A DNA stretch of 64,000 nt, taken from positions 167,065 through 231,064 of the forward strand of contig CANDNA010000001.1 of assembly GCA_947385955.1 (NCBI GenBank), written 5' to 3'. The position numbers and the translations under genes were made by a program. The DNA comes from an uncultured Clostridia bacterium (GTDB lineage Bacteria; Bacillota; Clostridia; Lachnospirales; Lachnospiraceae). The notes under the pieces are model-generated. The model made no database searches and was not told the DNA's origin. It saw only the letters and a list, made by a program, of their open reading frames with translations. Positions 4,723-59,607 of this stretch are shown here, in pieces (positions within the stretch are counted from its first letter, which is position 1; every line of letters begins with the position of its first letter).

Positions 4723-5131
4723 TTATCCCACCCTCTGTCTCTGCATACAAGTAAAAGGGGAACACCAGATTCCCTTCCGTGTCCTCTGCCGCCAGTGTAT
4801 AATCCATATGGATCAGCAGACAGCCCCGATCCAGCTTTTCCTCAATCCGGATTCCCACATCCGCGATCCGCGGCTCCTGCTCAAGCAAAGTCTGCCGCAG
4901 TTCCCTGGCCATCATATTCAGCCGGGTGACAGAAGTATCCATAAACGTATATGCCATAATCCTGCTGCCAAATTCCGGATGAAGCCACCGCTCTCCCCGC
5001 TGGGTCATCAGGATACTGTAGACCGATTCCCGGACACTTGCCTCACCGGAAGATACCATAAACCGTCCCGTTGCCCTGTCAATCTGAGGCGGGAATTTCA
5101 TTCCTGTTCCCAAAAATTCCTGTCCTGCCAT
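4706..5131 (-). CDS. Baseplate wedge protein gp25 / GPW-like (lysozyme-like fold), 141 aa
   Basis: About 140 aa. N-terminal motif MAGQEFLGTGMKFPPQIDRATGRFMVSSGEASVRESVYSILMTQRGERWLHPEFGSRIMAYTF is characteristic of the GPW/gp25 family. RBS AAGGAGA upstream. Confidence 0.85.
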   Translation of the reverse strand: MAGQEFLGTGMKFPPQIDRATGRFMVSSGEASVRESVYSILMTQRGERWLHPEFGSRIMAYTFMDTSVTRLNMMARELRQTLLEQEPRIADVGIRIEEKLDRGCLLIHMDYTLAAEDTEGNLVFPFYLYAETEGGINGGRR

Positions 5132-12238: not shown

Positions 12239-12733
12239 TTAATTCGGTATCACCAATTCCTCATATGCAATCTCCACCGATTCAATGGCCACTTCGCTGG
12301 CAGTGGAATTTAAATCCGGCGCAGTGTATTTTGTCACCCAGGCATTGGTCAGAACCCATACTCTGGTACCGCTGATACTTGTTACCGGTGTGGAAGGCGC
12401 ACCTGCGTTAATATCAATCAATTCAATGGACACTTTGGAACGGGGCATCTCTCCCCTGGTTTCACTGACGCAGTCCTGTATCCATGTCTTGAAAGCATTG
12501 TCAATGGTATAGCCCATTTTCAGGGTAACATTCCCATGCTTGACAAGTCCCGGTACTTTCACCGGCGCCAGGCTGTGGGAATTGCCCTGACGGAACTCGA
12601 TCACATCCACCGAAGCCTCCACTCCGCTGACCTCGGTAAAAGCAGCCGTTCCGCTGACCGAATCCACTGTCACAAGGAAATTCATTTTTGTCAGGGGATA
12701 GAAAAGCCCCGATCCATTCTCATATGCTGCCAT
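12239..12733 (-). CDS. Contractile-system inner tube protein (T4 gp19 / Afp1-like), 164 aa
   Basis: Immediately downstream of the sheath gene. About 160 aa. MAAYENGSGLFYPLTKMNFLVTVDS... matches the 'phage tail protein' tube family typical of eCIS / T6SS-iv loci. Confidence 0.8.
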   Translation of the reverse strand: MAAYENGSGLFYPLTKMNFLVTVDSVSGTAAFTEVSGVEASVDVIEFRQGNSHSLAPVKVPGLVKHGNVTLKMGYTIDNAFKTWIQDCVSETRGEMPRSKVSIELIDINAGAPSTPVTSISGTRVWVLTNAWVTKYTAPDLNSTASEVAIESVEIAYEELVIPN

Positions 12734-12764: not shown

Positions 12765-14462
12765 TTACCGGCCGGATGCCGACTCCGAGGTATACTGTGT
12801 CACCCTGAAAATTACAAATTCTGCCGGGCGCACCGGGGCAATGCCGATGTTGCAGATCAGCCGCCCGTTCCTGATATCATCCTGTGTCATCGTAGACGGA
12901 CCGATTTCCACAAAGAAACTTTCCTCCGGCGAGGCGCCTGCCAGCATACCGCTCCTCCACAGAGTTTCCAGAAAACCGCTGACAGTAAGACGCACTCTGG
13001 TCCACAGAGAAACATCATTCGGCTCAAATACCACCCAGCTTGTATTGGCCCGGATGCTTTCCTCCACATAGATAAAAAGCCTTCTTACATTGACATAGCG
13101 GAAGGTACTGTTACTGCCGACTGTCCGGGCGCCCCATACACGGATCCCCTGTCCCGGCAGCGCCCGGATCAGATTGATCCCTGCCGGATTCAGAATATCC
13201 TGCTCTTGTCTGGTAAAGGAAACCTTCAGACCGCTGCACAGCACCGTTTCATTGGCCGGCGCCTTATGTACACCTCTGGAACTGTCGGTTCTGGCATAGA
13301 CGCCCATCACCGCTCCGGAAGGGGGAAAATACCCATCCTTCTGTGTACAGCGGTCAAAACTCCGAAGCCAGGGATGATACATGGCTGCATAAGTACTGTC
13401 AATCATCTCCCTGTAGCGGAGCAGCTCTGCCGTATCACACATCTCTTCCGGCATATCCAGAACGGCAAAACGGCTGCCCGTCTTTTCACAGTGAGCCACT
13501 AAAGATACCATCACTTCCGCAGCGGTAACGCCGGGCACCGCCATCATACTCACCGTGTCATTTTCCAGAAATGACTGAATGCCTGTCCTCCTGCCGGCTC
13601 CCTCATCACGGCCGATAAAAGTACCGGCGTTTACCTGTTCTATACTGCCGTCGCTTCCACCTTCCAGCATAAAGGTCCCGGCAAAGATGTCCCCGCCCGA
13701 AACCGCGTCCGCAGGATTGTCCGCTCCGTCCTCTCTCTTCAGCGATACCCGGACCAGACGGCTCTTCTCCAGCCTGTTGCCTATATAATTGGGAGAAGCT
13801 ATATTAAAACTCAGATCACTGTAAATTTCCGTTTCGTCAAGATAACGGATCTGAAGTTCCGTTTCCGGAAGATACAGTACCCTCTCCGGTACCAGTCCTC
13901 CATCCACCACCTCTGTATCAAAAAGAGCTTCAAATGTGACATCATTGTCATAAATCGTCCGGATCCGGTTATACTTTCCGTCCACGGTAACAATATCCCC
14001 TTCTGCAAAACCGAAAATGGAACGTGCCCGATAAGTCCGCTCTCCTTTCTGCTCCATCAGCTGCAGTTTCTTTTTCAAAACAGTGGAAAAATTCATCTGG
14101 ATCCGATTTCCCCAGCTTCCTTCACTGGCTGCTTCCACCTGGAGGATATCGATTGTCGCACAGGCCTTTGCAGCGTCCTTTGGCGCTACCCGGCTCACAT
14201 AACAGCGTGTTCCCCCATTGGCAAAAAACTGCTCCACACTGCTGGCCAGATAACGGTATTCCCCATGCGTAAACTCACTCAAAGGACCGCCGAAAATCCG
14301 TAAAAATTCCGCATAGGACGGAACAAAAACCGGCGCCCCCGCTACAGGTCCCTTTACCGCCATCCCCACAAAACCGGCTGTGCTGGTTCCCACTCCCTCA
14401 ATTGTCCGGGGAGAATTGTCATACTCTTCCACATATACCCCCGGTGATAAATATTCTGCCAT
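12765..14462 (-). CDS. Contractile tail sheath protein, 565 aa
   Basis: The N-terminus MAEYLSPGVYVEEYDNSPRTIEGVGTSTAGFVGMAVKGP is the hallmark phage / eCIS sheath N-terminal motif. Size is about 560 aa. RBS present. Confidence 0.9.
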   Translation of the reverse strand: MAEYLSPGVYVEEYDNSPRTIEGVGTSTAGFVGMAVKGPVAGAPVFVPSYAEFLRIFGGPLSEFTHGEYRYLASSVEQFFANGGTRCYVSRVAPKDAAKACATIDILQVEAASEGSWGNRIQMNFSTVLKKKLQLMEQKGERTYRARSIFGFAEGDIVTVDGKYNRIRTIYDNDVTFEALFDTEVVDGGLVPERVLYLPETELQIRYLDETEIYSDLSFNIASPNYIGNRLEKSRLVRVSLKREDGADNPADAVSGGDIFAGTFMLEGGSDGSIEQVNAGTFIGRDEGAGRRTGIQSFLENDTVSMMAVPGVTAAEVMVSLVAHCEKTGSRFAVLDMPEEMCDTAELLRYREMIDSTYAAMYHPWLRSFDRCTQKDGYFPPSGAVMGVYARTDSSRGVHKAPANETVLCSGLKVSFTRQEQDILNPAGINLIRALPGQGIRVWGARTVGSNSTFRYVNVRRLFIYVEESIRANTSWVVFEPNDVSLWTRVRLTVSGFLETLWRSGMLAGASPEESFFVEIGPSTMTQDDIRNGRLICNIGIAPVRPAEFVIFRVTQYTSESASGR

Positions 14463-48314: not shown

Positions 48315-50909
48315 TTATTTCAGGTATTTTTTCAGCTTGCAGACAACAGCCTGAATGTCAATCGGTTTTGCCAGATGGTCATTCATGCCGCACTCAAGAC
48401 ACTTTTGAATATCTTCCGAAAAAGCATCTGCCGTCATTGCAATAACAGGAATATCTGCATCCTCACGCTCCAGCGCCCGAATGGCCCTGGTCGCTTCGTA
48501 GCCGTTCATCACCGGCATTCTCACATCCATAATAATAGCATCATAATAGCCAACAGGGGACTTCTCAAACTTTTCAACACAGCTCTGCCCGTTTTCCACC
48601 CAATCCAATTCCATCTCAAGAACGGAAAGCAGTTCTCTGGCAACTTCCCAGTTAAGCTCATTATCCTCTGCCATCAGGATATGTTTCCCTCTGCATTCCA
48701 GGCCGATCTCTTCTTCCCCACCGGCGCCTTTTTTATCCGAAACACCGGCAAATACTTTAAGGGCATCCAACAAAGCGGACTGAAACACAGGTCTGCAGAC
48801 AAACCCTGAAATCCCGGCCTCTCGTGCCGCCTTTTCCATACTGCTCCAGTCACAGGCCGAGAGGAACAGCGCCGGACTGTCTTTTCCATAACTCGATTGA
48901 ATTTTCCTCGCCGCCTCAATTCCGTTCATCCCCGGCAAGTTCCAGCTTAAAAGGATTATCTGATAAGCATCATTGCCATGACAGTGTTCAGCAATCAGTT
49001 CCATTGCACGCTCAACACTCAGACACCATTCAGAACGAATCCCCAGCGACTGTAAGGAATGGACTGTGCTGCTGCACAGGCGCTCATCGTTATCGACGAC
49101 AAGCATATGCCAGTCCGGCAGTACTGTATCCATCTCCTGCTCTGCCACTTTTGCCAGGTCAAGAATAACATGAAACTCGCTCCCCTTTCCCTGCTCACTG
49201 CGGACAGAAATGGTGCCGCCCATCGCATCTACAATATACTTGGTAATCGCCATTCCCAGCCCGGACCCTTCGGTTTTCTGTACGCGTGTGTTGTCCTCTC
49301 TGCTGAAGGAGTCAAATATTTTCTCCTGGTATTCCTTCGACATACCAATGCCTGTATCTCTCACCAGGAAATGGGTACGGACACAGGAAGGATCTTTCGG
49401 CAATGGTTCCTGATATACAGACACTTTAACAGAACCATTCTCCGGTGTAAATTTAACGGCGTTCCCCAACAGGTTAATCAATACCTGGTTCAGCCGTACA
49501 CTGTCACAGCACACATCCTCCGAAAGAATTTCATAAGCAACTGCATCAAACTGCTGATTTTTCGCCTTAACCTGGGGCTGTATGATATTGACAATGCTGT
49601 CCATTACTTCCTTTAATGACACCAGCCCCACATTCAGCGTCATTTTGCCGCTTTCGATCTTTGATATATCCAGTACATCATTGATCAGTCCCAGCAAATG
49701 CTTACTGGACAGCGCAATTTTCCGCAGATATTCCTGAACCTGTTCCGGCTTATGCACATTGGCTGCGGCCAGGGACGTCATACCGATTATGGCGTTCATA
49801 GGAGTCCGTATATCATGGCTCATGCTGGAGAGAAATTCCTGTTTGGCCGCATTGGCATGTTCTGCTTCTTTCCGCGCCTCTTCAGCGGCTTTCCGTGCCG
49901 TATCCATTTCTGTGTTCATATCCTTCAATGCAGATACCTGGTTTCGGAATATTCTCAAATACCGGAAAAACAGGTAAAGAAGCATGACAATTACCAGAGA
50001 AGAAGCGATATAAACAAGAGTAAGCCACCGATTTCCCATACCTGAAATCGCCTGATCCAGCCCTTCAAAAGGAAGGATCGTCACCAGATACCATTCGCAG
50101 TAGGGGAGGCTGGTACAATACAGATGACAGCGCGATTCTTCGCTTTTCAGTATAACAGTATAATCTTCATTCGTATTCATGGCATCTGTCATCTGTTTCA
50201 CATAGGAATCCGCTTTATCACCCTGACCGTCAAAGATTTTATACAGTCGGTTAAAATAATTTTCGTTTTTGTCATTCTGATCCCCCACAACATAAGTGCC
50301 ATCCTCGCGTATAACAAAGGAATACATCTGTGAACTGTCAGACTCAAGGAAGAGGACCTCTCCCATATAATTGGCAGAAAGCCCTACCACAATGGCAAGG
50401 CTCCCGCTTCCATCTGACATAGGATATTCACAGGGGATCCCAAACAAAATTACCCCGTTCCCATTGTTGTCTACCGCAGATGCGACTTTGCGTTCCCCGT
50501 TTTTCAGACTTTCCAAAAACGTTTCAGGGTGATTCAGCTTCACTGTATCCCCGTAAATCATTTCGATCCTGCCGTCTGACGAATACAGGGCAGCGCATAA
50601 AAAATGCCTTGCCCTCGCACCGTATTCAATCTCCTCCTTCGAACCATAGCCCAAATCCCCCTCACCTGCCGCAATATGCGCTATGGATTCCGCCATTGTC
50701 AGGCGGAGCTCAATAACCGTTTCAAAATGTAAAGATACCTGCTCATTCATTCCGGCCATATAATCATTGCCTATATCTTCAATCGTATTTTCACACATAT
50801 CGTTAATGGATCTTCCAAGAAAGAAAAACACGAAACTCGTTAAACAAATGATTACTGCTATGTTAATTTTTAAGGAACGCAGCAAAGGCATGTTTTTCAT
50901 ATTTTTCAT
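48315..50909 (-). CDS. Hybrid sensor histidine kinase: periplasmic sensor domain between two TM helices, HisKA, HATPase_c, two receiver domains (864 aa)
   Basis: H-box SSMSHDIRTPMNAIIGM. N/G boxes LLGNAVKFT, DTGIGM, GSGLGM. REC1 LLVVDNDE...LLSWNLPGMNG. REC2 ILMAEDNELN...IIMDVRMPVMNG. Confidence 0.8.
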   Translation of the reverse strand: MKNMKNMPLLRSLKINIAVIICLTSFVFFFLGRSINDMCENTIEDIGNDYMAGMNEQVSLHFETVIELRLTMAESIAHIAAGEGDLGYGSKEEIEYGARARHFLCAALYSSDGRIEMIYGDTVKLNHPETFLESLKNGERKVASAVDNNGNGVILFGIPCEYPMSDGSGSLAIVVGLSANYMGEVLFLESDSSQMYSFVIREDGTYVVGDQNDKNENYFNRLYKIFDGQGDKADSYVKQMTDAMNTNEDYTVILKSEESRCHLYCTSLPYCEWYLVTILPFEGLDQAISGMGNRWLTLVYIASSLVIVMLLYLFFRYLRIFRNQVSALKDMNTEMDTARKAAEEARKEAEHANAAKQEFLSSMSHDIRTPMNAIIGMTSLAAANVHKPEQVQEYLRKIALSSKHLLGLINDVLDISKIESGKMTLNVGLVSLKEVMDSIVNIIQPQVKAKNQQFDAVAYEILSEDVCCDSVRLNQVLINLLGNAVKFTPENGSVKVSVYQEPLPKDPSCVRTHFLVRDTGIGMSKEYQEKIFDSFSREDNTRVQKTEGSGLGMAITKYIVDAMGGTISVRSEQGKGSEFHVILDLAKVAEQEMDTVLPDWHMLVVDNDERLCSSTVHSLQSLGIRSEWCLSVERAMELIAEHCHGNDAYQIILLSWNLPGMNGIEAARKIQSSYGKDSPALFLSACDWSSMEKAAREAGISGFVCRPVFQSALLDALKVFAGVSDKKGAGGEEEIGLECRGKHILMAEDNELNWEVARELLSVLEMELDWVENGQSCVEKFEKSPVGYYDAIIMDVRMPVMNGYEATRAIRALEREDADIPVIAMTADAFSEDIQKCLECGMNDHLAKPIDIQAVVCKLKKYLK

Positions 50910-50975
50910 CTCCTCTGTTTTTAATTTATTACCTGAGTCTGAACTCCGGCCACTGTCCGTTTCACGTTTTTACCA

Positions 50976-53579
50976 TCACCTCAGCCGGCTCATGACCCTG
51001 AACATTGTGGGGATGTCTACCGGCTTTGCCAGATGTTCATTCATCCCGGCGTCTTTAGCCAGGGCAATGTCCTCTTCAAATGTGTTTGCCGACAGCGCTA
51101 TGACAGGCACTGTTTTCGCATCTGTCCGTTCCAGACTGCGAATCACCCGGGTTGCCTCATATCCGCTCATAACCGGCATCATCAAATCCATAAGCACACA
51201 GTCGAAAGTGCCCGGAGCAGATGCCTCGAACGCGTCCACAGCAGCTTTGCCATCATTGGCGGTCACAACCTCCGCACCTGCCTCCTGAAGAATATACTCT
51301 ACGATTTCACAGTTAATCTCATTATCCTCCACCAAAAGAACACGCATTCCGGCAATGCTGTCCTGCATATCCTGCTCCTCTTTTGCAGGATCTCCGCTCC
51401 ATGCCTCATCGACCCGAAGAGGCAGCATGATTTGAACCACACTTCCTCTGCCAGGACAACTGTCTATCCTGATGCTTCCCTTCATCTCGTCCACCAGCTT
51501 TTTTACAATGGACATGCCAAGGCCCACGCCATTATAATTGGTTCTCGCATCCTGATGTTCCTGTGTAAAAGGCTCAAAAATGTGCTCCTTAAATTCTTCT
51601 CCGATGCCGATTCCAGTATCTTCGATCTCAAACCCGTAATCTGCAATCCCGTCCTGGCAGGCGTTTTCCCTTACCCGGACAAATACGGAACCATGAGGCC
51701 TGTTATATTTAAGAGCGTTGTCAATAACATTCATCAGGATTTTCTTTAAGTGCAGCGTATTTCCTATCAATCTGCCATGCCGTAAGCTGACCTCCTCCAG
51801 CACCAGCCGGACTCCCCTCTCCTCTGCCTGGGAAGAAAGGATCGAAATACAGTCCTCCACGGTATCCTGAAGAGCAAAAGGCTCTTCTACTGCCGACGGT
51901 CTCCCACTCTCCAGTCTGCTGACCTGCAGAACGTCGTTCACCAGAGAAAGCAGATGCTCCGTTGACACGCGGATTTTCTTATAACAGTCTCTCTGCCGCT
52001 CCGGATCATCCTGACTTTTTTCCAGGATAGATAACATTCCCATAATCCCATTGATGGGTGTACGAAGGTCATGAGACATATGGGAAAGAAATTCACTCTT
52101 TACCGAATTTGCTCTCCTTACCCTCTCCAATAACTCCAGAATGGACTGCTCCTGTTTCTTCCTTGTCATCATGGTTTCCGTGATGTCCTGATGGTATCCG
52201 CTCAGGCAGACACCCGGTTTTTTGAAAGTCTTGTCCGGCACTCCACCACATCGGACATAAATTTTACCCAGTTTTGGATGATTCCAAAGGTAAATCACCT
52301 CAGAACGCCCTGTTTCCAGTATCTCCAGAACCGCCTCCTGCACCATTTCCACATAGTCCGGCTCAATATTTTCAAACCAGCTTTGGTAACACGCCTCCGG
52401 ATCGATCTCATCCGGTACGCCCAGAAGAATCCGCATTGTACGGTCCGCATACATTCTTGGTTTACAGCCTTCCTCCAGTTCTATCGTCCAGATGCCTGTC
52501 CTGGCTCCTTCCAGAATATCCTCCAGGCTTTGCCGTGCCTCCAGCTTATGCTTCTCCTCCTGCTCCACCACGGCATTGACATCCCGCTGGGCAAAAATTG
52601 CGCAATTCTCCTCCTCGGTCTTTTCCGTAGCGGAAAAATGAAGTTCCATATGTTTCAGTCCGAATGAACTGTCTTTTACCTGATATCTGACAGAAATCTT
52701 TTTCTTTGTCTTAAGCTGAGCGAGCACATAGTCTTTTTTTGTCACAGCACGGAGCCGGTCCTGATCCTGTGGGACCACATACCGGAAAATATACTGCTCT
52801 ATAGCTGCCTGATAACCCTCCTTAAAATGAAAGGCCCAATCCATACCTGTCCATTCGCTGTGCCGATAAATCTCACATTCGCCTGTGTCAAAGTTCACCT
52901 GATAGATGCCCAGATAATCCACACTGAGAGCATGGAGAACGTTATAACTGCGATTTTGAAGTTTCCGGAACAGATTACGGCGTTTCAGCGAGGATACGAT
53001 AAAATATGCTGCGGTCTGCAGCATATTTGATGCGTATTCCAACGTTCTCACAGGAGGATTATCCACACCATAAAAACCGATGATTTTTTTGCCGTCATAA
53101 AGGGGTACCACCACAAGAGAATAAATGCCCTGCCGCTTCAGGTTCTCATACTGAAGCGGGTCAGACTCACGGATATCTTCCAGATTCTCAATAACAATAT
53201 GCCTGCCGATACTGAACTTCCGGTACCAGCCCGCGCATACCTCTGAAGGGACATTTTGAAGATTCTCCTTTTCCGGCACAACCCCCTCGGCTGTCCACTC
53301 ATAGGTATTATCATCGCCGCCGGATCTGTTCTGCTCGAATATGTAAGTCCGCTCCCCATTCAGCGCCTTGCCCAGATGCTCCAATAACACCTCCAACGAC
53401 TGATCCGGGGTTTCCTCCAGTAATGCAACACGAAGGCCCTCATTAATAATGGCTTCCAGATTCTGAACACTCCGCATACCACTATGCTGCGCACAGCTTC
53501 CGGCGGCTGGCACACCTTCACCACCCCATTCAAAAAGTCCACCTGAATACCCCATAAGACTGTCCTCCATACAGGCCAT
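50976..53579 (-). CDS. Cytoplasmic hybrid sensor histidine kinase: GAF, PAS-like, HisKA, HATPase_c, receiver (867 aa)
   Basis: H-box LSHMSHDLRTPINGIMGM. N/G boxes VIDNALKYN, DTGIGI, GVGLGM. REC VLLVEDNEIN...VLMDLMMPVMSG. N-terminal GAF-like region. Confidence 0.8.
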   Translation of the reverse strand: MACMEDSLMGYSGGLFEWGGEGVPAAGSCAQHSGMRSVQNLEAIINEGLRVALLEETPDQSLEVLLEHLGKALNGERTYIFEQNRSGGDDNTYEWTAEGVVPEKENLQNVPSEVCAGWYRKFSIGRHIVIENLEDIRESDPLQYENLKRQGIYSLVVVPLYDGKKIIGFYGVDNPPVRTLEYASNMLQTAAYFIVSSLKRRNLFRKLQNRSYNVLHALSVDYLGIYQVNFDTGECEIYRHSEWTGMDWAFHFKEGYQAAIEQYIFRYVVPQDQDRLRAVTKKDYVLAQLKTKKKISVRYQVKDSSFGLKHMELHFSATEKTEEENCAIFAQRDVNAVVEQEEKHKLEARQSLEDILEGARTGIWTIELEEGCKPRMYADRTMRILLGVPDEIDPEACYQSWFENIEPDYVEMVQEAVLEILETGRSEVIYLWNHPKLGKIYVRCGGVPDKTFKKPGVCLSGYHQDITETMMTRKKQEQSILELLERVRRANSVKSEFLSHMSHDLRTPINGIMGMLSILEKSQDDPERQRDCYKKIRVSTEHLLSLVNDVLQVSRLESGRPSAVEEPFALQDTVEDCISILSSQAEERGVRLVLEEVSLRHGRLIGNTLHLKKILMNVIDNALKYNRPHGSVFVRVRENACQDGIADYGFEIEDTGIGIGEEFKEHIFEPFTQEHQDARTNYNGVGLGMSIVKKLVDEMKGSIRIDSCPGRGSVVQIMLPLRVDEAWSGDPAKEEQDMQDSIAGMRVLLVEDNEINCEIVEYILQEAGAEVVTANDGKAAVDAFEASAPGTFDCVLMDLMMPVMSGYEATRVIRSLERTDAKTVPVIALSANTFEEDIALAKDAGMNEHLAKPVDIPTMFRVMSRLR

Positions 53580-54359
53580 TTTCCGGCCATAGTATCACAA
53601 CAAATTCCCGCGCCGGGATATTTCTTACCCCAAATCCCGATTGCAGAATATTCATATCATTTCGCTATATTTTTACAACTTTACCATAAAAATCCGGAAA
53701 GTCTGTGTCATAATATCATACGCATAAAATGACGTCAATATAAAATACAAACCCTTCCCCTCTTTTAAATACCAATTACACAAACCAGCGTCTGTTTTCA
53801 ATCAGGTAACATTCTTTTCACATATACCTCAAAGGATTGTTCTGTCAAATATTACCCGCAACAGAATGCGGAAAAAAGGAAGCCTTTTATAAAATTTCTC
53901 AAAAACTTTTCCAGATATCTTAAAAGTATGCCATTGCCCTTAGAACTCCTTTGCCCTGTCTTTTACTTTTCAGTAAATGGCATTCCAACATAAGAACGGT
54001 CTGACATTTTTTGCTCTCACAATAATTAAGCCAGGATAAGAATGGCTGTAATGCAGACCTTCCATAATGTTTTGCACCACAATTACTTTATTTTTTCCCA
54101 TCCTTCTTCTCCCGTATGGCACTGATTAATCTTATTACTCATGTAGAAGTATACCATACTGTCTTTACCTTTTCAATTAATTACGAACATAAGTTCTGTT
54201 TTTATTTTAAAAATTCCATGTTATTTATGAATTATTATTCGTTTTAGCCCTGCCAAATGTTTATATAAAATCCAAACAATATATAATAAGCACTTTATTC
54301 GACAATATATATGTCAAAACAAAGTGCTTATTCCCCCAAAATCTACTCCTTTCTATCCC
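53580..54359. other. ~780-bp AT-rich (~30% GC) non-coding stretch with no ORF >60 aa, left of the island's direct repeat. Contains the hairpin AATAAGCACTTTATT-N21-AACAAAGTGCTTATT (54283-54330).
   Basis: GC content drops relative to the ~58% flanks. The ORF track is empty here. The inverted repeat was read directly from the sequence. Confidence 0.5.
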
Positions 54360-54395
54360 GGCAGACTCCCCTCCACACACAACGACCCATACCCC
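54360..54395. repeat. Left 36-bp direct repeat (GGCAGACTCCCCTCCACACACAACGACCCATACCCC), a duplicated copy of the subtilase gene 3' end (attL-like)
   Basis: Identical 36/36 to 57863-57898. Its reverse complement encodes GYGSLCVEGSLP, the C-terminus of the S8 peptidase. Confidence 0.85.
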
Positions 54396-54575
54396 GCGTG
54401 TGTCAAGTTAATGTCACAAACTTTTTTCACTTTTTTTGAACGAAAATCGCTGAAACCCGCATAACTTCATGGGGCGTATGGTTCGCTAATGCTAAGTCAG
54501 GGCAAAATTGACGGTGAATTAGAGTCAAGTCGCTTTTATTTGTAAGCCACTGCTATTCCTTGCCATTAGGATATT

Positions 54576-55229
54576 TTATACTAATAATTCTCCAAAGCAT
54601 TGCATTAATTCTTTACTTTCCCTTACTATACTTCTTTTAAATCCGGCAAAACTACTTTCTCTACTTAACATTTTTTTAATTCTTTCCCAATATAGCGTTC
54701 GCAATTTGTTATCACTTTCATTGAAATAGTTCTCAATATATTCTGTAAATTCTTTTATTTCCTCAGAAATTTTGCTTTTTAAATTTCTCGCCTCAAATTC
54801 TGAGATTGCTGTTCCTGCACCATTATATATTTTATCCAATAATTCACGTGTTTCACTATTTTCAGCGCTGTATGATCTATCATCCTTCACTTCAACATAA
54901 TGTTTCGGATAACTGTCAAATATGATATGTATATACTTTTCCGGATCATCCTTTGTACAATCAATAATATGATCATATTGACTTCCTTTAATTCTATTAC
55001 AGTGCGCACAAGCATAAAAAAGATTGTCCCAATTATATTTTAAGTAGTCATTATTTTTACATGAGCGAAAATGTTCTACATTAATAACTGTTGGATTTTT
55101 TTCTTCACAAAGATAACACTTATTATAAAAATCCTTCTGTAATATAAAAATAATTTTCTCGCTCCGATAGTCTTCTTCTTTCTTAATAACTGTTCCTATC
55201 GGGAGTAACGACTTGTCTATTTTAACCAT
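54576..55229 (-). CDS. HNH endonuclease of the restriction/defence-associated type (TIGR02646-like, PtuB-like), 217 aa
   Basis: CYLCEEK...VEHFRSCKNNDYLKYNWDNLFYACAHCNRIKG carries the C-x2-C ... H ... N ... H/C HNH core. The start overlaps the upstream ATPase stop by 8 nt. Confidence 0.65.
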   Translation of the reverse strand: MVKIDKSLLPIGTVIKKEEDYRSEKIIFILQKDFYNKCYLCEEKNPTVINVEHFRSCKNNDYLKYNWDNLFYACAHCNRIKGSQYDHIIDCTKDDPEKYIHIIFDSYPKHYVEVKDDRSYSAENSETRELLDKIYNGAGTAISEFEARNLKSKISEEIKEFTEYIENYFNESDNKLRTLYWERIKKMLSRESSFAGFKRSIVRESKELMQCFGELLV

Positions 55230-56370
55230 TCTGTCTTTCTCTTTCCATTCTTTTAAAGTCTAATATAATATCCTTTGCCATAAAAACAGGAATTGATTTA
55301 AAATATTTAATCAATTCAGCTAACTTTTCATTTTCAATCTCATTTCGAGAATCTCCTTTTTCAACAAGTTCAACATACCCTCTATATTTCTCATTCATTA
55401 CATTTGAGTACATACTTGTATCAAAAAGAGAATTTACCAAACAGTCATAGGAATATTCTGATAAATTTTCTACCTGAATATTCTTCTCCAGATCATAAAC
55501 CACCGCCGACTCTATTGATGACACAACAAACGGAGAATGTGTTGCTACAATAAATTGCAAATTAGGGAAAATCTTTATTAAAAAAGGAAGAACCCTTTTT
55601 TGCCAGGAAATATGCAAATGTAATTCTATCTCATCTATTAAAACGATACCTGGTAAATCATATTTTAAATGAGCCTGATGTTCCATCCGTATTACTATTT
55701 CAGAAAAAATATGAAAAAGAGCTTCATAACCGCTTGCCATTTCATCCAAGCAAAACACTTCTCTATCTGGTAATTTAATCTTGAAACACATATCTTCCAA
55801 TGATAAGTCGAGTCGCAACTGCATATTTTCAAATAATTCTCTTAAGGCATTTTGTAGCCAATCAAACCACCTTTCAATATCTTCAACTCTTTCTTTTTCC
55901 CCTTTTTCCTTTGCTATCAATTTTTCAAAATATAAATATATCAACAACTGTCCAAATAAATAATTCATTTTTTCTGTAGGCATCTTTACTGCACTTATAT
56001 CTACAACCTCAACTGCCCTTGATTTACTTATTTCAAACTTTCTATCAGAAGGAAAATATATCTGCACAAACTCTCCCTTTTCATACAATTGATACATTTC
56101 TTTACCATCAATATCTTTTGATAAACTATTACATATTTTTAGTTTATCTGAAGAAATGCCAAAATCAAATTGTCTCCATGTTGAACCGGCAAATCCCCAC
56201 TCATGAATCCCTATTTGACTGCTAATTGCATTAAGCAATGTTGTTTTTCCACATCCATTAACTCCCGTAAGTATTAAGTGTTTCAACTTATCTCTGGATA
56301 ATTTTATTTTAATATTCTTCAAGTGCCTCACTTGCAAAACATCTATCTCTGTTAAAAATATATGTTCCAC
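55222..56370 (-). CDS. ABC/SMC-type ATPase (AAA_21/AAA_15-like, PtuA/AriA/OLD N-terminal class), 382 aa
   Basis: Walker A GVNGCGKTT. Q-loop / signature-like MASGYEALF. Walker B IVLIDEIELHLH. H-loop ATHSPF. Confidence 0.75.
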   Translation of the reverse strand: MEHIFLTEIDVLQVRHLKNIKIKLSRDKLKHLILTGVNGCGKTTLLNAISSQIGIHEWGFAGSTWRQFDFGISSDKLKICNSLSKDIDGKEMYQLYEKGEFVQIYFPSDRKFEISKSRAVEVVDISAVKMPTEKMNYLFGQLLIYLYFEKLIAKEKGEKERVEDIERWFDWLQNALRELFENMQLRLDLSLEDMCFKIKLPDREVFCLDEMASGYEALFHIFSEIVIRMEHQAHLKYDLPGIVLIDEIELHLHISWQKRVLPFLIKIFPNLQFIVATHSPFVVSSIESAVVYDLEKNIQVENLSEYSYDCLVNSLFDTSMYSNVMNEKYRGYVELVEKGDSRNEIENEKLAELIKYFKSIPVFMAKDIILDFKRMERERQNG

Positions 56371-56431
56371 TCTGACCTACTTCTTTGATTCCAATCTTCA
56401 TTATCTTAATTTACATATAATAAGCCAAAAG

Positions 56432-57733
56432 CTATAAAGTTTCTTCTTCAATTACCCATTGTCCGTTTTTCTTAGAACCTATTCTTTTTATAATGCCCTT
56501 TTCTCTTAAAGTACGAATATGTTTTGTAACCGTCGTCACTCCAACTCCTATTTGTCTACTAATTTCATGTACTGTAATATTACTGTTCGCTTTCATCCGG
56601 CTTAATATTTTCTTATCACATTCATTCAATACAATCCTCTTCTTCTTTTGTAAATCTCTTTCCACTACTTTACCTTTGTTTAATGGAATTGTTACTGTAA
56701 TAAAATTCTCTGTAATATCAAATACTTCTTTTCCATATTTAGATACAATTAAAGGCACGCCATGCCCTGTCTGCTCTATATAATCCAACTGAACCATAAT
56801 CTGCTGGAGTTCAAGATTCACAGGTTTACTTTTCCCCTCATAAAATTCCTCCAGTGTAAGTCCCTCTGGTAATCCTCCCACCGATATAACCTCAATGCGA
56901 TCTTCAAACATATACACGGCTGGCGGTGTCTGTCTTGACCAACGATTGTGCAAACAAGCATTTAACCATGCCTCTCTAAAGCATGGAAAATCAAACAGTT
57001 TGCTCTCCTTTCTAAGGCTGCCACCTACATCCACTATGGTATCATTTAGCGCTTCCATATAGTCTAACACCTGCTTTACAGCTACAAGTATACATTTATA
57101 ACCGTATTCATTCCTCCTAATCAAATCTGTCTTATCTGTGCCACGAAATACCGCAACTTTAATAGAATAACTATTAATATCTGCCAGAATAGCCGCCATT
57201 AAATTGTAAGTTCCGTCACGTGTCAAAAGATTTAAGTTCTGCTTAAACGTATTTTCCCGAAGCGTAAGATTATTTCCGGCATATAACATCTTAAGTTGCT
57301 CAAAACTTAACTCTTGATTATTCGCTTCAATATTTACGATAGAATCTGATACGCTAAGCATCAGATTGCGTAACTGCTGTGGCGATATTTCCCTGTCCTC
57401 GTCCGCCGATCTCATATAATACTTTCCATATGCCGAATAAGGTTTTTCATCTCCTTCTACAGTAACTCTAATTACATTTTTATCATCACATAGTTCCATA
57501 ATAATTGTCGGAATAACTTGTGGTTTAATCGCATTCGCAATTCCCTGAGATATTTCACGTAATGTACGATCACCAATTTGCTGGCCTAAAATTTCACCAT
57601 CATTTCTTACTCCAAAATACAATGTACCTTTTCCATTTTTATTTAACATAGAAGCCAATGAAATAACGCCTTCCTTCAATTCTCCAGTCGTTTTTTTAAA
57701 CTCTATCAGCTCTGTTTCCATACCGAAATTCAT
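56432..57733 (-). CDS. AlbA_2 (Schlafen-like 'divergent AAA') domain protein with HATPase_c_4-like middle region and C-terminal winged HTH, 433 aa
   Basis: N-terminus LIEFKKTTGELKEGVISLASMLNKNGKGTLYFGVRNDGEILG is the classic AlbA_2 motif. C-terminal HTH NITVHEISRQIGVGVTTVTKHIRTLREKGII. Confidence 0.65.
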   Translation of the reverse strand: MNFGMETELIEFKKTTGELKEGVISLASMLNKNGKGTLYFGVRNDGEILGQQIGDRTLREISQGIANAIKPQVIPTIIMELCDDKNVIRVTVEGDEKPYSAYGKYYMRSADEDREISPQQLRNLMLSVSDSIVNIEANNQELSFEQLKMLYAGNNLTLRENTFKQNLNLLTRDGTYNLMAAILADINSYSIKVAVFRGTDKTDLIRRNEYGYKCILVAVKQVLDYMEALNDTIVDVGGSLRKESKLFDFPCFREAWLNACLHNRWSRQTPPAVYMFEDRIEVISVGGLPEGLTLEEFYEGKSKPVNLELQQIMVQLDYIEQTGHGVPLIVSKYGKEVFDITENFITVTIPLNKGKVVERDLQKKKRIVLNECDKKILSRMKANSNITVHEISRQIGVGVTTVTKHIRTLREKGIIKRIGSKKNGQWVIEEETL

Positions 57734-57855
57734 AATATCACTCCTTCCATATTTATTATATCCTTTTTTATTATTTTAATCAACACTTATTAGACACTTT
57801 ATTCAGCGCCTATGTGATAAATAAAGTGTCTATTAACTCAAAAAACCACTCCATT

Positions 57856-59607
57856 CTACCTTGGCAGACTCCCCTCCACACACAACGACCCATACCCCAC
57901 CATCTCATTCGGAAATTCCGCAAACCCCGGCAGTGCTTTCGCACCCTTCTGCAGATATGCCTTCACTTTCTGTCCATACAGGTATGCATCATTTCCCTTC
58001 ACGATGCCCCATTCCATCAGCAGGGAAGAAGCGCCGGTTACGAACGGCGTCGCAAAGGAAGTGCCCGTTACTGCTTCCCGTCCGCCGCCTGCCGCTGCCG
58101 TTACGATTCCCACGCCCGGTGCCGCCAGGTCCGGTTTGCTCTGTATGATTCCCAGCCGTTCTCCCGCATCCGCCGCAAAGAAATATCCCCTGCCGGAAAA
58201 GTCTGCATAGGCCAGATCGGTTGTACGATAGGCGCCTACGGTAATGGCCCTGGAAGCTGTGGACGGAATGGTCAGCGTGGTATCCGGTGTGGCCCGGTAA
58301 AACCCGGTGCTCTCCCCGATGGCTGCCTGGCTGGGAAGGTACATGCTGAAATTGCCCGTCACGATACGGACCGGCTCCAGTGTAAAAGACCAGATTCCAC
58401 TGCTTACATATCTGTCCATCGGCAGGAAATCCAGATAAATCTCCTGCTGGGAGGAATATGGTACGGGCTCGCCGATATACAAAAGCACCTCTGTCCCTTC
58501 CATCGGAATACGGCGCATCCGTTCCCCGCCCGGATCATCCGTGGAAAATAAAGTGCTCCGTCCTCCCGGCGATGTCAGTGTGATGCGGAAAGTATCCGCA
58601 TAGTTTTTCCAGAGCTGTACACTGAATGCACTCTCGTAGCTTCCCACAGCCAGCTCCACCTTTGTGGACTCCAGCGCATTGCCTGCCATATGTCCTCTGG
58701 CCGCCCCTTCATTTCCGCTTCCCACACAGATCACACACCTGCCCACCTCAGATGCATTGTCCAGAAAGCGTTCCAGAAGGGAAGTCCCGTCATGGGAGCC
58801 ATAAGTATTGCCGAAACTGATGTTAATTGCTATGGGTTTTTGGAGAAGCAGCGCCTTTTTCACCAGATAGGTAACGGCCCGCATCAGTTCTGTAGTTCGG
58901 GGAAAAGAATCTCTGGCCGGTGTTCCCAGCCTGATGATCAGCAGTTCACTTTCCGGGGCCACCCCTTCTTTCCCCGCCGCAATACCGGCCACTGCCGTTC
59001 CATGCCCGCTGATATCCCGCACCGGCAGGCTTCTTTCCACAGCACCGTTTTCCTCCTCTGCCAGAGCGGTATTGATCTGCTCTGCAGTAAATTCCACTCC
59101 CGTCAGGAATCCTTCCGGCGGTTCCCATCCCTTCTCTGCATCCGGCACAAGGCTCTGATCCCAGATGGCCGCGATCTTCGTACTCCCGTCCGCATTCCTG
59201 AAATCCGGATGACGGTAGTCGATTCCCGAATCCGCAATACCGATCAACACCCCTCTGCCGCTCAGATAAGGAGGCCGTATGGTAACAGGCAGGATACAGG
59301 ATGCCTGCTTCCCTGCAAATACCTGAAAATACAGCCGTTTCGGCTTTTCCACATATTCAATCTCTTCTATTTCTGACAGAATTGCCATTTGGCTCTCCGG
59401 TACTGTCAGGATGGCATACCCTGCCAGCAACGGTTCCACCACGATGGAAAGCTCTTCCAAAAAAAGGAGGTCACCGTGATATTTCACGATGACCTCCCAG
59501 GTCCTGTCCTGCGGATCAAATCCAACCTCCAGGATTCCCGATTTTTCCCGTTCCTCCGGCGTTGCTTCCAGCGCCGCATTCAACAACAGTTCTAACTTTT
59601 CCGACAT
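57856..59607 (-). CDS. Subtilisin-like serine peptidase S8, Csp-type (germination-protease-like) architecture, 583 aa
   Basis: Catalytic Ser motif GTSFATPFVTGASSLL. His motif HGTAVAGIAAG. Asp region GIADSGIDYRHPDF. N-terminal WEVIVKYHGDL-type prodomain as in Csp proteases. The last 12 codons lie in the island's right direct repeat. Confidence 0.75.
   Translation of the reverse strand: MSEKLELLLNAALEATPEEREKSGILEVGFDPQDRTWEVIVKYHGDLLFLEELSIVVEPLLAGYAILTVPESQMAILSEIEEIEYVEKPKRLYFQVFAGKQASCILPVTIRPPYLSGRGVLIGIADSGIDYRHPDFRNADGSTKIAAIWDQSLVPDAEKGWEPPEGFLTGVEFTAEQINTALAEEENGAVERSLPVRDISGHGTAVAGIAAGKEGVAPESELLIIRLGTPARDSFPRTTELMRAVTYLVKKALLLQKPIAINISFGNTYGSHDGTSLLERFLDNASEVGRCVICVGSGNEGAARGHMAGNALESTKVELAVGSYESAFSVQLWKNYADTFRITLTSPGGRSTLFSTDDPGGERMRRIPMEGTEVLLYIGEPVPYSSQQEIYLDFLPMDRYVSSGIWSFTLEPVRIVTGNFSMYLPSQAAIGESTGFYRATPDTTLTIPSTASRAITVGAYRTTDLAYADFSGRGYFFAADAGERLGIIQSKPDLAAPGVGIVTAAAGGGREAVTGTSFATPFVTGASSLLMEWGIVKGNDAYLYGQKVKAYLQKGAKALPGFAEFPNEMVGYGSLCVEGSLPR
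57863..57898. repeat. Right 36-bp direct repeat (attR-like), forming the true 3' end of the S8 peptidase gene
   Basis: Identical 36/36 to 54360-54395. Confidence 0.85.

Follow-up and report, generated by a model that had tools for sequence, protein, structure and literature searches.

How does a low-GC block of three genes, devoid of any recombinase, come to sit at the 3′ end of a protease gene between two perfect copies of a 36-bp sequence? The block lies in a 64-kb stretch of DNA (64,000 nucleotides [nt], hereafter the window, whose positions are used below) from an uncultured Lachnospiraceae bacterium (assembly GCA_947385955.1, contig CANDNA010000001.1), directly downstream of a gene encoding a CspB-like germination subtilase. 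According to our analysis, this island (a cassette at 54396-57838 with a 36-bp copy on either side) belongs, as a non-autonomous unit, to a family of integrative elements whose target in Lachnospiraceae is the 3′ end of Csp-family subtilase genes, where G-(Y/W)-G is encoded. We assign a probability of roughly 0.72 to this reading of the island. Autonomous members of the family carry three tandem large serine recombinases (LSRs) beside a 135-bp right-end module (P) and would recombine at GGGG. The window unit carries, at the place where its relatives have recombinases, a defence cargo consisting of an AlbA_2 regulator-like protein and the Septu proteins PtuA and PtuB with their own promoter-like site, and its Csp side holds a copy of the last 12 codons, the stop codon and a terminator-like hairpin; since the cassette brings this copy of the Csp end, the gene remains intact. 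Because no LSR triplet is present in the island or in the window, we deem the unit non-autonomous, like 81 of the 102 classifiable units among the matches listed, to which the counts given below refer as well. The island is one unit of a recurrent cassette array and not a one-off. Sequence comparison shows that the family exists, what it targets and which recombinases it has, how attL and attR read in its autonomous members, that the window has an attR and that the cassette occurs at a second Csp paralog, and we infer that the cassette reached its site through the recombinases of the family.

Exactly two copies of the 36-mer (GGCAGACTCCCCTCCACACACAACGACCCATACCCC) are present in the window (54360-54395 and 57863-57898), with 0 mismatches between them, and the chance expectation is 0 matches (100 shuffles). 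The GC content is 0.28-0.32 in the island (54600-56800) versus 0.55-0.60 in the subtilase gene (57800-58600), and about 0.49 in the surrounding chromosome. The target gene, on the minus strand at 57856-59607, encodes a protein of 583 amino acids with Pfam matches to Peptidase_S8 (3.1e-31) and CspB_prodomain (2.3e-29) and is intact through its stop codon at 57856-57858; the gene order RNaseJ-DHFR-HtpG-Csp is kept across L001-L011 (L numbers denote the genomes and contigs compared). The proximal 36-bp copy (57863-57898, minus strand) lies inside this open reading frame (ORF), where it codes for ..GYGSLCVEGSLP, followed by R and the stop codon; it represents the last 12 Csp codons and the B′ half of the attachment site, with the putative crossover GGGG at 57895-57898, as placed from the attL and attR of autonomous relatives. 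The distal copy (54360-54395, minus strand), with a pseudo-stop TAG beyond it at 54353-54355, has no Csp coding sequence upstream and forms the attR junction together with the module. The possibility that this orphan copy is a decayed Csp paralog was rejected upon inspection of the reading frames, as neither an ORF nor any similarity precedes the 36 bp and the similarity begins sharply at GGGG.

The direct repeat extends to 58 nt at 90% identity (54338-54395 versus 57841-57898), and weaker similarity runs on through the adjoining hairpins (54274-54300 versus 57778-57804, 74%); the repeat is therefore an imperfect unit of about 120 nt, made up of the Csp terminus and a terminator-like hairpin. 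Conservation of the mobile cassette begins with the proximal hairpin, called here hairpin′ (TTAGACACTTTATT..AATAAAGTGTCTAA; 57787-57836, minus strand, inverted repeat I5), which probably serves as the terminator for Csp; its arms, 57787-57803 and 57820-57836, show 94% complementarity. The canonical hairpin (AATAAGCACTTTATT..AACAAAGTGCTTATT; 54285-54332, minus strand, inverted repeat I15), whose arms at 54285-54299 and 54318-54332 show 93% complementarity, opens the next, older cassette, and a near-identical sequence is found 3′ of Csp or of the distal core in L005, L006, L017, L061 and L084. The hairpin arms (GACACTTTATT) are similar to the outer half-site motif. Despite this resemblance, the hairpin was rejected as the crossover site, since both arms are conserved together in all three cassette copies. 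The same island structure is present in an independent ENA metagenome assembly (L081/L218); L081, L083 and L218 reproduce the island region at 100% identity, and the Logan contig L082 covers 2.3 kb of the structure at 99% identity. An earlier note on this DNA had described a low-GC island between perfect 36-bp repeats, the right copy encoding the last 12 codons of an S8 peptidase, the left one orphaned and each preceded by a diverged hairpin; all of this is borne out, save that the exact 36 bp are only the core of a longer repeat unit.

Between the PtuB stop codon and the orphan repeat lie the 135 non-coding base pairs of the end module, or P arm (54396-54530, minus strand; nhmmer 7.7e-41). 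The window module shows 85-97% nucleotide identity to the modules in about 20 species-level Lachnospiraceae genomes, where Csp is only about 53-75% identical at the protein level, and 95% identity to the module of the autonomous element in L076. In these relatives, Csp is always followed at a distance of 1.2-9 kb by the module, to which a further Csp 3′ end is directly joined. Its boundaries are defined by a sharp start at ACTTGACAnTAATT and the end ..AACTTGACAyACGC; in the window, the module end ..AACTTGACACACGC is joined to the orphan repeat. The motif ACTTGACAnTAAT is present in three direct copies, while GGGG with the P′ left-end half-site is found once, in inverted orientation. Paired half-sites were seen at both element ends (window 54396-54530; L076 11750-11940): in the module, about 75 nt separate the inverted GGGG and P′-like copy from the terminal P site, and the left end of the element has a second, inverted P′-like copy about 150 nt inside. 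No Rfam match was obtained in 53500-58000 at E<=1. We rejected the module as a structured RNA, given the empty Rfam result and folding z-scores of only -2.4 and -2.1; its repeated protein-site-like motifs and its position after LSR genes offer a better explanation.

What such modules accompany when recombinases are present was seen by scanning IMG/VR with a 20-nt module pattern. Five contigs (L084-L086, L088 and L090) carry three tandem genes, encoding proteins of about 530-610 amino acids, directly before the module; in L084, all three contain the Pfam domains Resolvase, Recombinase and Zn_ribbon_recom, and the third also DUF4368. The isolate genome L076 (1xD42-87) harbors a complete 7.1-kb element within the Csp 3′ end, in the order attL, a 78-amino-acid protein, a PIN-domain protein, a DUF6870 protein, LSR1-LSR2-LSR3, module, attR and hairpin. 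The 78-amino-acid protein has no Pfam hit and may form a toxin-antitoxin pair with the PIN-domain protein. When the L076 element was compared with plasmid and phage collections, only short, weak matches and no annotated relative were found.

With a slash marking each junction, attL in L076 is Csp..GAGGGTGGGG/GCTTATGGTATAATAGTGTCAAGTTAG and attR is ..CTTGACATACGC/GGGGTATGGGG..; an attL of this type is also found in L004, L048, L060 and L064. The two junctions of these five autonomous relatives share GGGG only, so that the crossover is placed within these four nucleotides, with which the 36-bp repeat starts at its 5′ edge, and the repeat is not the crossover core. The 36-bp copies are instead a regenerated, attB-like gene end (right) and a true attR (left). 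The attachment sites would read ..GGTG-GGGG-TATGGG.. for attB and approximately ..TTGACAyACGC-GGGG-GCkTATGGTA.. for attP, the predicted form in L076 being ..ACGC-GGGG-GCTTATGG.., and recombination would yield attL (Csp/P′) and attR (module/Csp 3′ end). The gene side in the window shows an intact Csp end followed by the hairpin, not a Csp/P′ attL, and the Csp/P′ motif (GGGG/GCkTATGGTA..GTGTCAAGTTAG) has no match in L081, L083 and L218, the contigs that reproduce the island at 100%. In all 21 autonomous units among the matches listed, an LSR gene ends at most 900 nt upstream of the module, in the position held by PtuB in the window. The earlier note had taken the two repeats for an attL/attR pair and had suggested looking for tyrosine or serine integrases. 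Its left site is indeed a true attR, but the two copies are not a pair with a 36-bp crossover core in common; as to the enzyme, the serine alternative fits the LSR triplet, and all recombinases found beside modules are of the serine type, no tyrosine recombinase having been seen beside any module, where cargo ORFs were only partly annotated.

Further sequences resembling these sites were noticed. L116 contains a perfect attP-like palindrome, TTGCCATACGC-GGGG-GCGTATGGCAA (700-790), with the dyad symmetry expected of an attP core, located downstream of a GHKL-type sensor kinase-like gene as judged by eye. It was considered and rejected as an excised circular junction, because only the last ~60 nt of a module adjoin it and the gene context is unrelated; a relic resembling attP, or else a secondary site, may be what is seen there. 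In L037 (14375-17200), a different small element, ending in AGGACGTTATAATAAGGTTAC, lies inside an orphan core just after GGGGTATGGGG and bears genes for a TnpV-like protein, a TetR-like regulator and a MATE-like transporter (N-terminal sequence only). L010 has an end similar to that of the L037 element within Csp, but at a different GGGG. The same sequence may thus be used by a second family of recombinases.

The size of the family was estimated from a metagenome scan, in which at least 120 stretches matched, 101 of the matches listed having a true module. Module junctions were then counted over genomes, metagenomes and IMG/VR, each distinct one once and provided that 45 nt or more followed it. 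In 101 of 117, the module continues in frame as a Csp-type C-terminus with G-(Y/W)-G, be it type 1 (GYGALCVExSLPx), type 2 (GYGRLNIxGTFExLAxx) or GWG variants; in most of the remaining 16, a frameshift or truncation affects this same sequence. The junction in the window, ..ACGC/GGGGTATGGG, is of the type found in those 101, and we regard it as a standard attR on these grounds. Directly upstream of the module, an LSR gene is present in 21 of the 102 classifiable units and other genes in 81; hence, about four-fifths of the units are recombinase-less cassettes like that of the window. Two or three units may be strung together in an array, e.g., in L034, L036, L084 and L090, and LSR units at times precede cassettes in such arrays, directly upstream in L084 and L090.

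The 22 cassettes analysed measure 1.2-9 kb and have a GC content of 0.30-0.42 versus 0.49 in the host, with nearly all genes co-oriented with Csp. In the annotated subset of these 22, the cargo is mostly defence-related. Besides Septu in the window, it includes AbiL (L043 and L055), Wadjet JetABCD (L045), a CBASS cyclase with E2 (L055), a SIR2/ThsA-like protein with PDC-S02 (L017), PDC-M62 (L078), STAND/NACHT NTPases (L006 and L067), HipA-like kinase pairs at seven loci and KilA-N proteins at four. The contigs of the closest relatives (L001, L002, L003 and L005), which are metagenome-assembled genomes (MAGs), end 115-470 nt after Csp; repeated or strain-variable cassette arrays probably explain such breaks, and the arrays are probably under-represented in MAGs. 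A GC-rich hairpin insertion of about 24 nt (GCCTCAAGTCTTCGGACTTGAGGC), which looks like a small inserted palindromic element, was observed within the last codons of some Csp 3′ ends or orphan cores (L006 11780-11805; L018, L034, L076, L129, L145 and others), and in L006 it alters and shortens the C-terminus (..CVASSLRT, then the stop codon).

The three genes of the island are all on the Csp strand. The first (56432-57733, minus) encodes a protein of 433 amino acids with SLFN_AlbA_2, HATPase_c_4 and winged helix-turn-helix domains (Pfam 1.8e-15, 2.5e-13 and 1.7e-10, respectively), the second (55222-56370, minus) the Septu ATPase PtuA of 382 amino acids (PADLOC PDLC00268, 6.6e-93; Pfam AAA_21 and AAA_15), and the third (54576-55229, minus) the Septu HNH nuclease PtuB of 217 amino acids (PADLOC PDLC00331, 1.3e-55). 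PtuA and PtuB are encoded on the same strand with an 8-nt overlap, as a Septu gene pair, and the cassette is predicted to supply anti-phage defence. A sigma-70-like promoter site, TTGATT-17-TATAAT (57755-57783, minus), which is a consensus match only and ties for the top score of 10/12 in our consensus scan, lies between the proximal hairpin and the first cargo gene. That the island encodes no recombinase, as the earlier note had stated, was confirmed by Pfam and PADLOC searches of the three ORFs and by tblastn with the three LSRs. Close homologs of PtuA and PtuB were observed in other mobile contexts, L091 (8001-9792) and L093 (6629-9944), with 81-82% protein identity for PtuA and 82-84% nucleotide identity for the PtuAB genes. 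These contexts are a region with ParB, TnpV/MobC and relaxase genes, resembling an integrative and mobilizable element (IME), and a type I restriction-modification island with an AlbA_2 gene after PtuB; the Septu module travels among elements of different kinds.

Comparison between loci bears on the mobility of the cassette. The unit hairpin′-AlbA2-PtuA-PtuB-module occurs in L094 with 91.4% identity over 3417 nt, where it follows a different S8 gene whose product has 31% protein identity to the window Csp, a type 2 C-terminus and ClpX encoded upstream. Since the same cassette stands next to so divergent a Csp paralog, it is mobile. The window sequence shared with L094 and L058 begins at hairpin′, at TTAATAGACAC. 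About 20 further contigs of 2-5 kb hold little besides the AlbA2-PtuA-PtuB cassette, as expected from assembly breaks at shared flanks. KilA-N and HipA-like cassettes, too, show 80-99% protein identity across loci with far more divergent Csp, in the first, second or third array position. The 36-bp core of the window matches that of L021 at 35/36 positions (Csp 54% identical) versus 31/36 for the closest relative, L001 (Csp 90% identical), which hints that the last 12 Csp codons are exchanged along with cassettes. In L046, L061 and L067, the proximal and distal copies are identical or nearly so and carry locus-specific variants, whereas those of other loci differ at 3-8 positions; such homogenised repeats, together with the discordant cores, indicate that homologous recombination or gene conversion in hairpin, core and module also shapes the arrays. 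In the array of L034 (14005-14110), located at a type-1 Csp gene, the module was seen to be followed by a type-2 core (..GYGRIDINGTFETLARL and a stop codon), a fragment of a type-1 core end and the hairpin, a mosaic that points to exchange between the arrays of the two Csp paralogs.

On the other side of the orphan copy, the window contains a KilA-N-type cassette remnant (53970-54284, minus), consisting of an upstream region and the first 19 codons (MPYGRRRMGKNKVIVVQNI). Window positions 54065-54341, which span the hairpin, the upstream region and these codons, are 90% identical to L006 11838-12116, where the full-length protein has a KilA-N domain (1.5e-20). The similarity ends at about 54065, and the window ORF 53970-54122 continues into unrelated sequence. 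With this remnant beside the island, the window holds a two-unit array, whose distal unit has been cut short where it meets the sequence preceding a hybrid histidine kinase gene. The earlier note had proposed as empty site the subtilase gene followed directly by the 53.6-54.3 kb region; as the flank at 53.97-54.36 kb is the KilA-N remnant, that site would itself be occupied. L006 was at first read as an empty site, and this was dropped when a module and partial core were located 5 kb downstream, which make it a different, occupied cassette.

On the reading we favor, that of a non-autonomous LSR-family unit, the cassette would travel either joined to an LSR-bearing helper (accretion and cis-mobilisation) or as a circle acted on in trans, and would integrate at the Csp attB in front of the older KilA-N cassette. 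The helper part would then leave through attL × internal attR excision, whereby the gene end would be regenerated with the donor core and the orphan copy left behind. The helper-joined route would be canonical and matches the model of accretion and cis-mobilizable elements (CIMEs) known from Firmicutes (PMC12084326); the trans-circle route would need a non-canonical site pair. The locus would act as an array that accumulates and exchanges defence cassettes. The comparative junction data agree with the earlier proposal of site-specific integration at the subtilase 3′ end, with the gene end reconstituted and the orphan copy displaced. A possible but doubtful extension is that the LSR triplet and the 135-bp multi-site module form an integron-like platform, in which the LSRs act in trans on single recombinase-less units. 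Non-canonical pairs (module/core × Csp attB or module/core × module/core) would recombine, and the paired inverted half-sites of the module would serve as accessory, res-like sites. If this were true, anti-phage systems would have a programmable collection point where a germination-protease gene ends, and the mobile pool would include the last 12 Csp codons.

Several points weigh against placement of the unit by the family's recombinases. The window copies are identical over 36 bp and then mismatched at 6 of the next 22 positions, which fits gene conversion or a homologous crossover equally well as an LSR event. Action of an LSR on a cassette-type site (P/B′) is not canonical for phage-type LSRs, and neither an LSR nor any other recombinase was detected in the 64-kb window (tblastn with the three LSRs; Pfam on ten further ORFs). 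One and the same cassette is joined to a core of type 1 in the window but of type 2 in L094, the shared sequence beginning only at the hairpin; a GGGG crossover should carry the left core along, yet the cores differ, and therefore at least one step other than LSR action, such as homologous recombination in hairpin or module, is required. No excised circle was found, nor was a same-species empty site or alternative arrangement; exact-protein look-ups returned no record for Csp and only the same context for PtuA, AlbA2 and the histidine kinase. The main rival, although we consider it unlikely, is accordingly homologous exchange, whereby a cassette from a related array, acquired through transformation, transduction or conjugation, was installed by RecA, with the core and hairpin as left arm and the module and core as right arm, or by Campbell-style entry of a circle via the ~120-bp repeat; the LSRs would have built the array earlier without placing this unit. 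What speaks for it is that the copies match over 36 bp, a length sufficient for a RecA crossover, and diverge right after, that those of L046, L067 and L061 are (nearly) identical, that one cassette is paired with two core types and that L034 has a mosaic of a type-2 core and part of a type-1 core. Yet the arms are short and 75-97% identical, double-crossover replacement alone creates no orphan gene end and merely copies an LSR-made architecture, and many loci show the 3-8 mismatches between proximal and distal cores expected where LSRs join donor and recipient DNA.

Decay in place, by which an autonomous element lost its recombinase genes through deletion and left a dead remnant that never moved as a cassette, would account for the lack of a recombinase and recalls the truncated KilA-N unit next door, a sign that decay does occur in the array. 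We judge it improbable, since the Csp-side junction is an intact gene end that simple deletion cannot recreate from a Csp/P′ attL, all 21 autonomous units have an LSR gene where PtuB sits, the same cassette, likewise devoid of recombinases, is found at another Csp paralog (L094) and the three genes, the promoter-like site and the module are all intact. Of the two fates that the earlier note had offered, a decayed element or cargo mobilised in trans, the latter comes close to the comparative data, while the former is disfavoured by the intact gene end and L094. A direct repeat that reconstitutes a gene 3′ end is the textbook pattern of tyrosine recombinase islands, such as those targeting tRNA genes, with the 36 bp as attL/attR identity segment and the integrase lost or located elsewhere; this origin is nonetheless very improbable here, because every recombinase-bearing element with the module carries three serine recombinases, the autonomous junctions share only GGGG and no tyrosine recombinase was seen beside the modules in the partly annotated cargo. 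As for a chance repeat or an assembly artefact, for which one can adduce only that many MAG contigs break just after Csp, its probability is close to nil in view of the 0 matches by chance, the identical structure in an independent assembly and the presence of the architecture in >100 contigs.

Beyond the array, no other match was obtained for 53580-54065 (GC ~0.35). Just past it, at 48315-53579, two adjacent hybrid histidine kinase/response-regulator genes were observed, encoding 864 and 867 amino acids, the second with a GAF domain; in L007 and L032, homologs of these kinases precede Csp instead of following it, so that synteny does not extend to the right flank of the array. Positions 1-26000 hold a long minus-strand gene cluster (e.g., 12765-14462, 12239-12733 and 4706-5131), in which one protein, of 565 amino acids, is homologous to phage tail sheaths (Phage_sheath_1 and Phage_sheath_1C), and by eye its neighbours resemble tail-tube, gp25-like and baseplate proteins. 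The cluster, in which neither a capsid nor an integrase gene was noticed, may encode a contractile injection system or a particle resembling a phage tail.

Among known systems, recombinase-less (pseudo-SCC) cassettes and tandem composite arrays exist for SCCmec, one of the staphylococcal cassette chromosomes (SCC). Like SCC, pseudo-SCC and the enterococcal cassette chromosome (ECC), the family described here has LSRs that integrate at the 3′ end of a conserved gene and regenerate the gene end, flanking direct repeats of tens of base pairs that include the gene terminus, and highly variable cargo. In ECC, the repeats are ~50 bp long, attL lies in rlmH and attR downstream, and remnants without a recombinase are known (PMC6222049). 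SCC and ECC can thus be regarded, by analogy, as a precedent for serine-recombinase elements with gene-end repeats of about 50 bp and recombinase-less remnants. The differences are substantial: the target is a Csp-family germination subtilase gene and not the SCC integration site rlmH (orfX), three tandem recombinases replace CcrAB or CcrC, with the same domain architecture and a likeness to Ccr by domains only, the element end is a 135-bp multi-motif module, the host belongs to Lachnospiraceae and the annotated cargo is mostly anti-phage defence, whereas that of SCC is antibiotic resistance. The likeness to SCC is functional; we do not claim that the sequences are related to ccr or to the attachment sequence of SCC. 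In Dehalococcoides, islands at ssrA combine a serine recombinase, direct repeats of the ssrA 3′ end and tandem stacking; they differ in the RNA gene target, the single recombinase, the phylum and the reductive dehalogenase cargo.

CIMEs were defined for the tyrosine-integrase integrative and conjugative elements (ICEs) ICESt1/3. They are remnants that keep att sites without integration genes and share one att site, in tandem, with autonomous elements; mobilisation in cis is the presumed way in which they move (PMC12084326). The window likewise has an attR and an attB-like gene end and lacks a recombinase; unlike in ICEs, no conjugation genes were seen in the annotated units, and the autonomous units are minimal. 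The island would therefore work like a pseudo-SCC or a CIME while being a member of neither. Streptococcal ICEs and IMEs can carry three tandem serine integrases at one extremity, with Resolvase and Recombinase and mostly Zn-ribbon domains, and the serine-triplet ICEs integrate site-specifically in protein-coding genes with direct repeats of 2-8 bp (PMC4701971). Those repeats match the 4-nt GGGG of the autonomous members here, but the streptococcal elements are conjugative and disrupt mutT, hsdM or traG, and recombinase-less arrays with regenerated gene ends are not described there (PMC4701971). With mobile integrons, the family has in common a fixed entry point and co-oriented cassettes that each end in a conserved recombination module, most units lacking a recombinase. 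Integrons, however, rely on a tyrosine recombinase, folded single-stranded attC sites and usually promoterless single-gene cassettes, in contrast to the multi-gene units of 1.2-9 kb, the promoter-like site in the window's cassette and the element-borne serine recombinases found here, and the likeness is put forward as a functional analogy only. Full-text literature searches returned no description of a Csp system with this module and LSR triplet.

The interest of these results lies mainly in the whole system rather than in the single island. It looks like a previously unannotated system of the cassette chromosome type in the abundant gut Lachnospiraceae, one that the genomic comparisons would define by the G-Y-G target codons at the Csp-family gene end, the 135-bp module and the three LSRs. 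The module provides a simple sequence handle for mining metagenomes for defence cassettes, including candidate new systems, and the att sites and recombinases could serve as integration tools for genetically recalcitrant Lachnospiraceae. A testable question is why an LSR element should need three recombinases and a multi-site end. For the biology of the family, the system would extend the logic of SCC and CIMEs to defence islands.

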